Shown one piece after another: positions 48,430 through 51,739 of a DNA stretch of 64,000 nucleotides; positions within the stretch are counted from its first letter, which is position 1; the number at the start of each line of letters is the position of its first letter. Under the pieces are notes generated by a model. That model saw only the letters and a program-made list of their open reading frames with translations. It was not told where the DNA came from and did not search any database. Made by a program: the position numbers and the translations under genes. Source of the DNA: Eledone cirrhosa (Eukaryota); NCBI GenBank assembly GCA_964016885.1, contig OZ024740.1, positions 128,464,001 to 128,528,000 of the forward strand, written 5' to 3'.

Positions 48430-48821
48430 AAACAAAATAAACAACCATCCGGATATTAAACCAACCAATTGGAAGTTTGTATAAATTGAAGTGATATCCA
48501 ACAGGTGTATGACATTTCGTTGGGAGCATGAACCTTCCAGATTATAAGAATACACACACACACACACAAGCACATACACACACACAAGCACCCCCCCCCC
48601 ACACACACAAGCACACACAGAGGCACAGACGCAGACACACACACACAAAGACCCTCCCCTATACACATATATATATATATGTATATATATATATATATAT
48701 ATATATAAATATATGTGTATATATAAATATATATATATATATATATATATATATATATATAAAATATTAAACAAATAATGAATAAAACAATGAAACAGTT
48801 CCTTATATTAAACAAAAAAAG

Positions 48822-48976
48822 TTCATTATTTAACGATCGTTTCTAGGATATATATGTGTTAGAATTGGCATGCATATTCAACAGATCTATGTACAAAATT
48901 ATACAAAATTATACAAACTATCAAGATTAAATATACATACCAAACACACATATACGCCGTCTTCAGAAATAATGAA
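48822..48976 (-). ncRNA. Type I hammerhead ribozyme motif (mirror copy)
   Basis: Reverse complement of 50149-50303. Confidence 0.7.
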
Positions 48977-50148
48977 ATATATTTATTGATAATAACAACA
49001 ATTCAAAATTTCAGGTCCGTTTGGGAACAAAATTGACCAATGAAAATACAAAAGGTTTTATGCAGTATGGTGTGTGTATATACATGTAACTACCCCGTAC
49101 ACATATTTATACAAAGATGTATGCTCAACATGCATACGCATGCCAAAAAGATGCATGCAAATACAAAATTTCAAGGTTAATGTCTCTGTAAGTTTATAAT
49201 GCACAGATAAGATGCGTATAGACACATAAATATGAAATAAGTGTATACACATATTCTCATACTCACACATATCCGTACACTCACACACACGCGCGCGTAT
49301 ATGCATAAACATACACATAATTACGAACATACATACACACACACACCCCCACACACATATATATATGTGGATATGATATTATCATAAGCACATTATATAT
49401 ATACACATTATATATATACACATACACACATGTGTGTATGTGTATGTGTATATATATATATATATATATATATATATATATATATATATATGTATGTATA
49501 TATATATATATATATATATATATATATTTTCTTGATATATTTCTTTTTTCTTTTTTCTTTTTCTTTTCTTTCCTTTTTAATTTTTATTTTTTATTTCTTA
49601 GTTTATAGATACATCTATAAATAAGCAGTCTGCCCAAACCGTTGAATACTGACCTCTCCTCCCCTCCCACCTAATTTCTGTATCTTGATCTAAATGTGTG
49701 TGGCAGTGTTTATGTGAGTGAATTAATATCCATGTGCTTATGATAATATTATATCCACATATATATATGTGTGTGGGGGTGTGTGTGTGTATGTATGTTC
49801 GTAATTATGTGTATGTTTATGCATATACGCGCGCGTGTGTGTGAGTGTACGGATATGTGTGAGTATGAGAATATGTGTATACACTTATTTCATATTTATG
49901 TGTCTATACGCATCTTATCTGTGCATTATAAACTTACAGAGACATTAACCTTGAAATTTTGTATTTGCATGCATCTTTTTGGCATGCGTATGCATGTTGA
50001 GCATACATCTTTGTATAAATATGTGTACGGGGTAGTTACATGTATATACACACACCATACTGCATAAAACCTTTTGTATTTTCATTGGTCAATTTTGTTC
50101 CCAAACGGACCTGAAATTTTGAATTGTTGTTATTATCAATAAATATAT

Positions 50149-50303
50149 TTCATTATTTCTGAAGACGGCGTATATGTGTGTTTGGTATGTATATTTAATC
50201 TTGATAGTTTGTATAATTTTGTATAATTTTGTACATAGATCTGTTGAATATGCATGCCAATTCTAACACATATATATCCTAGAAACGATCGTTAAATAAT
50301 GAA
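50149..50303 (+). ncRNA. Type I hammerhead ribozyme motif with long stem II
   Basis: TTCATTATTT (50149-58) + CTGAAGA (50159-65) ... GAAAC-GATC-GTT (50282-93) + AAATAATGAA (50294-303). This gives a perfect 10-bp stem I, both core boxes, a palindromic stem III loop and an NUH triplet. Confidence 0.72.
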
Positions 50304-51739
50304 CTTTTTTTGTTTAATATAAGGAACTGTTTCATTGTTTTATTCATTATTTGTTTAATATTTTATCTTGACTCTGTATACCGTTTATCTTTCACCGAAA
50401 GTGATTTTTCATTACATCTCTTCTTTCCATGATATCCGGAATACATTGAGTTCTTCATACGGATTGGACACTACCGTAAACTCTTGGTAGATTTATCTAC
50501 ATATATATATATATATATATATATATATATATATATATATATATATATATATATATATATATATATATATATATATATATATATATATTTATATATATTT
50601 ATATATATATTTAATTTAGTTGTAGCCATATGTATCCTGGGCTGTTGTTGCTGGCATTGTTTTGGGTGTTCGCCCTACTCATCATGCCTGTTTGCATACT
50701 TTATTTCACATAAATGCATAAAATATTATACCTATAATCTATGATGCAGTATTCTGAAATTTGTTCATGTTTATTTTTAAACGCCAATTAGTATTTTCTA
50801 AATTCTTCATGAGTTGAATATTTAGGATAATTTGTAGCCATTTTAAAACTCTTCGTCCTTAATTAGCTCATGTTAGAAATAGTCTCTTCTTCATTTCTTC
50901 TTAATATTTTTTAACAGATGGGTACAGCTGAATGTCTATATTTTCCATATTGTAGCGCCCATCCACATATTTTTGAATCAAAATATATTCTACATTGTGA
51001 GTTTATTTTCAAATAAAAGTGGTTCGTTGATTGGTTATCCACAACTTTTGTATTAGAGAGAAAAATATGAAAATATGTGTAAAATATTTCTTTCTGTTCT
51101 AAAATAATGCTATTTGATAAAATAACTACAATTATTGATTTGTATGTATCTTGGCAGAAATTGAGTTGTTGAAAAATATTATCTCATTCATGCCACAAAG
51201 CATAAGTAATCTTTTCTACTACATGGTCACTCGACTTACTAGAAATAGCATTAAATCACTATAGCATCCTAAATAAAGGAAGAACAGTAATATCGCCTAC
51301 ACCTGCGCAGATGATACCACCCTCTATTCTGCACTAATGTGTCATACACATTCTACTTAAACGTACCCTGCCAAACATGTACTTTTAAAAGATCCTCCAA
51401 TGGGGTCACGCGAATCATGTCGCTTTCAACAGCACAAAGGCACAATTACAGCACACCTAAATTTCAAAGCGACATAGACGGTTCTTCCAAAAGGAACACC
51501 AGCGATTGTTTTGAATGCTAGACATCAGGATTTCTGAGAATTTGCAATGACGAATGCCCCCTTTAACACAGCAAATAATATATAAAAAATACTAGCTTAC
51601 TCATCAGAGGTAGAATATGATTTAGCCTCATACAAATTCAAGCCCTATACAATGTGATAACCAGAGAAACTTATCGCTACCGCATCTGGGATTGTGTTAC
51701 TGCTATATGTACAAACATTCCAGACTACATCCAAATAAT

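Follow-up and report, generated by a model that had tools for sequence, protein, structure and literature searches.

At positions 48759 to 50500 of a 64,000-nt stretch of Eledone cirrhosa DNA (the window, to which all positions refer unless stated otherwise), two inverted sequence arms stand between (TA)n microsatellites, each with a motif resembling a hammerhead ribozyme. What kind of element left this foldback, how did it come to be inserted, and would its motifs cut RNA? A sequence-only reading had placed the locus in a non-coding class of retroelements. Our analysis assigns it instead, with a probability of about 85%, to a young autonomous 6.5-kb Hydra-type Penelope-like element (PLE), whose truncated end pieces lie head-to-head, each with a hammerhead.

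Layout of the foldback and its parent element

The two arms are 635 nt each and identical at 634 positions, with one mismatch. The left arm halts in (TA)n; beyond the right arm there is a one-sided stretch of 134 nt up to 50500. The near-identical 635-bp arms, the left end at (TA)n and the right-hand extension, put at ~135 nt in the sequence-only reading, were therefore confirmed. The features of the locus are as follows.

48667-48761, no strand: left (TA)n target microsatellite
48759-49393, minus strand: the element's 3' end as an inverted, 5'-truncated copy, which ends at the inner of the two end points (50366 equivalent)
48822-48976, minus strand: left type I hammerhead motif
49394-49731, plus strand: spacer, consisting of junction filler and then element 3' UTR that includes the element's own internal (TA)n
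about 49394-49430: the junction filler in the spacer, short, with a 15-nt duplication
49732-50366, plus strand: right arm, the portion of the direct 5'-truncated copy that is common to both copies
50149-50158, plus strand: stem I, 5' strand
50159-50165, plus strand: core CUGAAGA
50166-50281, plus strand: stem II insert of 116 nt, a long hairpin with a C.A opposition at its base
50185-50282, plus strand: candidate retained intron within stem II, unproven, from sequence signals
50282-50303, plus strand: GAAAC, palindromic stem III ACGAUCGU, GUU cut site and stem I 3' strand (50294-50303)
50294-50352, plus strand: downstream hairpin, in which the stem I 5' strand recurs at 50343-50352
50367-50500, plus strand: one-sided tail of 134 nt between the two fixed end points
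50501-50610, no strand: right (TA)n target microsatellite

The 3.0-Gb genome was searched with 50060-50500, which yielded 1,008 candidates, 40 of which were scored. These 40 were 99-100% identical to the query, in agreement with the very young age proposed earlier. The (TA)n run in the spacer is part of the element and not a target, as 27 of 29 other loci could be aligned upstream as far as this inner run. At the equivalent of 50500, 26 of 30 loci ended in a TA-type microsatellite and the other four continued into the next unit. From twenty 10-kb stretches we delimited a unit of 6,482 nt, arranged in head-to-tail arrays, with an ORF at 152 and the hammerhead C3 at 6139; in the spacer alignment, window position 49601 corresponds to position 5581 of this unit. 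The 3' UTR is 3.9 kb long and rich in microsatellites.

The ORF comprises 813 aa, with a reverse transcriptase (RT) and, at its C terminus, a GIY-YIG endonuclease (EN). A Penelope-like origin had been proposed, with such a frame to be sought upstream of longer copies, and the parent bears this out, with Hydra-clade motifs in addition. RWR, SDKT, YRDD, CNCRNKANC, IVY..YIG, CRLC and CNH are present in the frame, and the GIY-YIG domain was assigned by motif and alignment, its E and N standing in the context CRLC..E..LLN..CNH. Matching motifs were found in 11 aligned homologues out of 95, several of them with RWR in place of RWK. The endonuclease motifs are C-terminal, not N-terminal as in the Naiad/Chlamys PLEs, and no CCHH motif was seen in the ORF by eye. 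Pfam and PDB sequence searches with the ORF returned nothing significant. Over the last 142 residues (EN), all 150 scored matches were 100% identical, and a full 830-codon open frame was present in 23 of the 150 (counted by eye).

By motifs and alignment, the ORF and its element are best placed, putatively, in the Hydra clade of C-terminal EN+ PLEs (Craig et al. 2021, PMC8557442; e.g. Hydra-1_Obim), whose described members have the same single frame of RT plus C-terminal GIY-YIG. The DKT, CxCX5C, CxxC and CxH motifs listed in PMC8557442 appear here as SDKT, CNCRNKANC, CRLC and CNH; insertion into (TA)n and a type I hammerhead near the 3' end, both described in that source, are shared as well. 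The N-terminal half of the ORF matches Hydra-1_Obim and Hydra-2_Amil motif by motif, by eye (PMC8557442 File S4). The element differs from the Hydra clade as presented in PMC8557442 in its length, 6.5 kb versus less than 3 kb (a tendency rather than a criterion), and in having RWR instead of RWK. Judged by its differing ribozyme sequence, Hydra-1_Obim is a different family.

Two further observations concern the family itself. In the frame at L035:6214-8655, an insertion of ~100 residues rich in Asn, Thr, Lys and His (residues ~470-580) lies between the RT thumb and the linker; it is absent from most homologues and recalls the Asn-rich inserts of rotifer Penelope elements (PMC3846280). Contigs from a number of other organisms (X5-X12) contain parts of the 3' end with 80-100% identity, so the family is common to more than one genome.

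A class of non-coding, non-autonomous, retrozyme-like ribozyme retroelements would account for a locus without an ORF and for the many short foldbacks in the genome. The locus indeed has no ORF, as stated previously, its foldback being composed of truncated 3' end pieces. However, the locus follows the 3' UTR of a coding element collinearly, breakpoints occur all along the unit, and a second family in the window (family C, below) also has a Hydra-type frame. We consider this class very improbable; for the main family it is contradicted by the coding parent. Of the earlier description as non-autonomous or truncated, 'truncated' stands, but 'non-autonomous' and 'non-coding' give way to an autonomous parent with many open frames. 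Animal non-LTR retrozymes (bioRxiv 10.64898/2026.07.22.740005) are similar in having a type I hammerhead related to PLE ends. As described there, they consist of short tandem units that are non-coding and each contain a ribozyme, whereas the locus is the truncated end of a coding element and the tandem unit here is 6.5 kb and coding.

The same layout had been reported at 10080, at 16672/24240/63599 and at 45121. Four of these loci proved to be ends of related families; the one at 45121 shows no hammerhead. The 10080 sequence comes from an old repeat family (457 candidates, ~75% identity) with a majority sequence of CUGAUGA, a 59-nt insert and GAAAC-RGUC-GUA; the copy in the window is worn and has lost A9. 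The worn foldback spans 10085-10436, the family tail is ~70 nt, and remnants of a Hydra-type ORF lie beside two copies (L087, L092). One young family, family C (1,044 candidates), accounts for the loci at 16672/17253, 24240 and 63599; its insert is 56 nt long, its stem III is full and has a palindromic loop, and two of three full copies inspected have a U3-A8 core. Its Hydra-type frame is 44% identical to the main one, and its unit is ~3.5 kb (L112). The locus at 16672/17253 is a worn U3-A8 variant, and those at 24240 and 63599 fold back inside stem II, retaining the 3' core half and missing the 5' core. The family C ends occupy 16665-17590, 24240-24429 and 63599-63780, with a tail of ~75 nt, and many copies of the family fold back at nearly one point within stem II. 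At 45121-45330 (minus strand), no hammerhead core was present in 12 aligned copies of an old family (149 candidates, ~78% identity), whose end lies in (TA)n and some of whose copies have an EN remnant and a Hydra-like frame nearby. Elsewhere in the window, a near-perfect 86-nt hairpin adjoining (TA)n (47478-47563) is possibly another folded-back element end. A LINE-type cluster with (AAT)n tails lies at 27708-31322 (minus strand) with an ORF1-like sequence at 31163-33276 and one open endonuclease-RT frame of 1,204 codons; its relatives are at 800-8350, 24500-26500, 33465-38700 and 58013-58732.

Insertion into (TA)n and the two end points

Of 18 loci tested, 15 had head-to-head junctions, one of these with a doubtful gap of 145 nt; the inner breakpoints ranged from unit position 459 to 6280. 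The outer ends were far less dispersed: of 47, 16 lay at 50366, one at 50369, 26 at 50501 and one at 50599, and three read through. The inner end joined to (TA)n occurred 1,938 times in the genome, compared with 0 for the control. Both the proposed targeting of (TA)n and the proposed inverted end with a one-sided tail are thus upheld by these counts, together with the 26 of 30 loci that end in a TA-type microsatellite.

The foldback shape is already known and is ordinary for Penelope-like elements. Inverted truncated copies with a one-sided tail of 30-40 nt have been described (PMC8557442, PMC3846280), and the published inverted insertions of EN+ PLEs (PMC8557442; PMC3846280; PMC11167929) share with the present ones the head-to-head end, the one-sided tail, partial tandems and two fixed ends; the tail is 134 nt here versus 30-40 nt there. 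For the anole element, PMC11167929 describes the tail as the stretch between two internal reverse-transcription start points, with both target strands cut and extended. The present locus likely arose in a similar way: the element protein would have nicked a (TA)n run, and reverse transcription would have started at two fixed internal points 134 nt apart; priming on both target strands, one per start point, and subsequent joining of the two cDNAs are steps drawn from PMC11167929. TA letters capable of pairing with the target are present at each of the two end points. Another possible route, offered by PMC3846280, is self-priming from an antisense template.

An assembly or long-read foldback artefact could in principle generate a left arm nearly identical to the right one between microsatellites. 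We rejected this explanation, which is scarcely credible here, on the recurrence of the same outer end 1,938 times, on the differing inner junctions, and on the arms themselves, which are one base apart and asymmetric; X5, contigs of another organism, likewise show the loose end into (TA)n at 50366. Because the arm had G for A at four positions, we tested for editing. Among young copies, variant sites on the sense strand (overlapping loci retained) comprised 51 A>G versus 55 T>C, so the A-to-I editing considered in the sequence-only reading has left no ADAR footprint in these genomic variants.

Hammerhead motifs with a long stem II

A window-wide descriptor scan (stem I of at least 6 Watson-Crick pairs, insert up to 300 nt) identified two type I hammerhead motifs and no others, one in each arm and both directed outward. 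The right motif has C3 at 50159 (plus strand) and predicted cleavage after 50293; the left has C3 at 48966 (minus strand) and predicted cleavage after 48832. Both consist of a 10-bp stem I, CUGAAGA, a 116-nt insert and GAAAC-GAUC-GUU, so the earlier description of two outward-facing hammerheads with a stem II of ~115 nt was accurate. The folding of region 50145-50310 gave z = -6.3 against 200 shuffles. CUGANGA, GAAA, an NUH site and the stem order of type I are all present, but the 10.1-11.1 pair, usually G-C, is replaced by a C.A opposition at the base of stem II in 41 of 65 distinct inserts. In the terms used for the Hydra clade, the pLTR hammerhead motif is present with a non-canonical stem II. 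No loop stands at the usual distance for a tertiary contact between stems I and II. In the Rfam search of the window, none of the 114 matches at E<=1 was a hammerhead, and the matches below the cut-off were exclusively microsatellite-driven miRNA matches; that a long stem II would hide the motif from a standard search had been foreseen.

We searched the genome with the pattern CTGANGA-N(x)-GAAACGRYCGT, x = 8-130, which covers one stem III type only and counts copies of few families. It matched 153 times at x = 8-38 (control 20), 203 times at x = 39-69 (control 18), 2,629 times at x = 70-100 (control 15) and 10,838 times at x = 101-130 (control 100). Inserts of 70-130 nt therefore account for 13,467 of the 13,823 matches. 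A genome-wide search with a longer stem II had been proposed as a check; run to 130 nt, it yielded these long-insert matches, and the core is kept in the sister subfamily described below.

Stem II has 44 predicted pairs, ~27 basal ones being supported across subfamilies. Across an alignment of 23 related motifs, pairing holds in 93.6% of cells overall and in 98% of the basal helix. Changes on both sides were found at 7 of 38 pairs (reached in 22 of 500 shuffles) and in 22 cells versus 7.2 in shuffles (0 of 500); the rows were chosen by the core pattern and are related by descent, and the shuffle counts are accordingly support rather than probabilities. In stem I, 2 of 10 pairs have changed on both sides. 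Contigs of four other organisms carry G50170A and G50176A, which convert G.U into A-U. By covariation, stem II is a long selected hairpin.

The core is also conserved. A sister subfamily (1,145 candidates) is ~85% identical at the DNA level and ~90% in the ORF, with a 105-nt insert and a GUA site; its core is intact in 28 of 30 copies, which were picked by DNA similarity. The two subfamilies differ by substitution at 13 of 65 positions upstream, at 1 of 18 across stem I and the core, at 1 of 12 in the core's 3' part (position 17), at 10 of the 69 basal-arm positions and at 13 of the 134 tail positions. U17 to A17 is the only core-region change, and a ribozyme permits A17. Position 17, left free in the search pattern, is A, U or C in all 65 distinct long inserts and never G. 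The stem III loop in the same 65 is GAUC in 53, GGUC in 7 and GGCC in 5, alternating between the palindromes GAUC and GGCC. In the distant lineage of L171, L174 and L187 (at 1500-1620 in their own numbering), whose ORF is 72-76% identical to that of the main element, core and palindrome are kept with no recognisable stem I (3 of 3), and the downstream hairpin is kept with changed pairs. An unrelated family (L161, L162, L172, L176, L179, L180 and L184-L186, at 1500-1620 in their own numbering) has a 4-bp stem I, a stem II insert of 95-97 nt that is predicted to be branched, and a loop varying between GAUC and GGCC.

Compared with the metazoan PLE type I hammerheads described by Cervera and de la Pena 2014 (PMC4209133) and by Lunse et al. 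(as given in PMC6765202), the motif has the same topology, with a 2-bp stem III, a palindromic loop and a predicted dimer; an extra base after A9 and the U3-A8 variant, here in family C, are further points of likeness. The arm is where they part. A 'long' helix II in PMC4209133 and PMC13725137 means 6-8 bp, versus ~27 supported and up to 44 predicted pairs here, without G10.1-C11.1. The spacer between the core halves is 116 nt here versus 12-26 nt in the 26 Hydra rows of PMC8557442 File S2, in which the longest spacer is ~54 nt (PLE-X1_sMoe) and Hydra rows often have U.U at 10.1-11.1. What looks new is this arm length, inserts of 70-130 nt versus 12-26 nt in published Hydra hammerheads; at this locus the arm exceeds that of its published relatives roughly fourfold. 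No PLE hammerhead with arms this long is reported in the literature searched, a scope that excludes Lunse et al. and the supplements of PMC4209133.

Folding competition, cleavage and intron-like signals

Each end piece likely carries a self-cutting hammerhead RNA. The predicted monomer does not favour the active form. In its best fold, GACG pairs with the cut-site strand (P ~0.73), stem III has P 0.056, and the hammerhead fold is 3.2 kcal/mol less favourable than the minimum; the lowest-energy monomer structure is thus something other than the hammerhead. When 60 bases were added downstream, P(stem I) dropped from 0.99 to 0.009: the repeat of the stem I 5' strand (50343-50352) is predicted to pair with the stem I 3' strand, in competition with the ribozyme fold. 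Folding predicts the downstream hairpin for 39 of 46 main-lineage rows and for 1 of 9 from the unrelated family with 95-97-nt inserts. Sense versus antisense folding gave -41.8 versus -16.8 at this locus, an advantage that is small or absent in sister subfamilies. Inserted copies reach 73 and 207 nt past the cut site.

We lean towards a motif that would cut in some context. With its palindromic stem III, the ribozyme would likely act as a dimer on tandem transcripts. Because the downstream hairpin is predicted to seize stem I and the copies extend past the cut site, cutting would probably be slow, co-transcriptional or protein-assisted. Minimal PLE hammerheads are described as cutting poorly and only as dimers (PMC4209133; PMC6765202), and the hammerhead of the anole element as requiring protein (PMC11167929).

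The same origin is also compatible with a motif that no longer cuts, its core, palindrome and hairpins being maintained, close to where reverse transcription begins, as a signal for RNA dimerisation or protein binding. Predicted folding has stem I outcompeted, the L171 lineage lacks it yet keeps the downstream hairpin, insertions run beyond the cut site, and ribozyme mutants of the anole element leave insertion in vitro unaffected (PMC11167929). These points make the loss of cutting possible, at clearly less than even odds. Against it stand the two-sided changes in stem I, the absence of G at position 17 from all 65 distinct inserts, which the pattern did not impose, and a sole core-region change between subfamilies that a ribozyme tolerates.

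A different account of the long arm takes it as a spliceosomal intron folded on itself: splicing would remove half of stem II and give an uncut mRNA, and unspliced RNA would keep the ribozyme and be retrotransposed. A donor-like G/GTATGT at 50184/5, a branch-like TCTAAC and an acceptor-like CCTAG fit a 98-nt intron; the acceptor G would double as G12 of the core, and the last G of the exon would rebuild GAAAC. Donor-like and YAG signals occur together in 41 of 43 inserts of the main lineage, and introns in pLTRs are described for Penelope and Chlamys-3, the Penelope intron abutting the hammerhead (PMC8557442, PMC4209133). Yet the conservation of these signals is confounded, because they also take part in helix pairing or are dictated by the core; the pyrimidine tract is weak, and the 99-nt subfamily does not retain the branch motif. 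The genome assembly contains no precisely spliced copy, which weighs little since such elements retain introns, and eight sets of contigs, which cannot show RNA ends, contain no joint at the candidate intron; the small-share sets X11 and X12 took no part in this comparison. Since none of the 22 inserts outside the main lineage has both signals, an intron cannot explain long arms generally. We regard it as unlikely for this family. Still less probable is a switch composed of a self-sequestered retained intron and the downstream anti-stem-I hairpin, in which spliced RNA without the ribozyme would be translated and unspliced RNA would pair via the palindrome, offering a dimeric RT two templates and giving rise to head-to-head insertions.

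As a ribozyme variant, the truncated ends of this Hydra-type element are of modest importance. In this one genome, the arms of over 13,000 hammerhead motifs far exceed the published range; Rfam misses these motifs, and surveys consequently undercount such hammerheads. The family, very young and with numerous intact frames, sharply defined ends at two points, an arm that covaries and a hairpin in competition with the ribozyme fold, is a good system in which to study the role of the hammerhead in Penelope-like elements and the reason for their retained introns. If the switch were true, a single mechanism would link the retention of introns in Penelope-like elements with their hammerhead and their inverted insertions.
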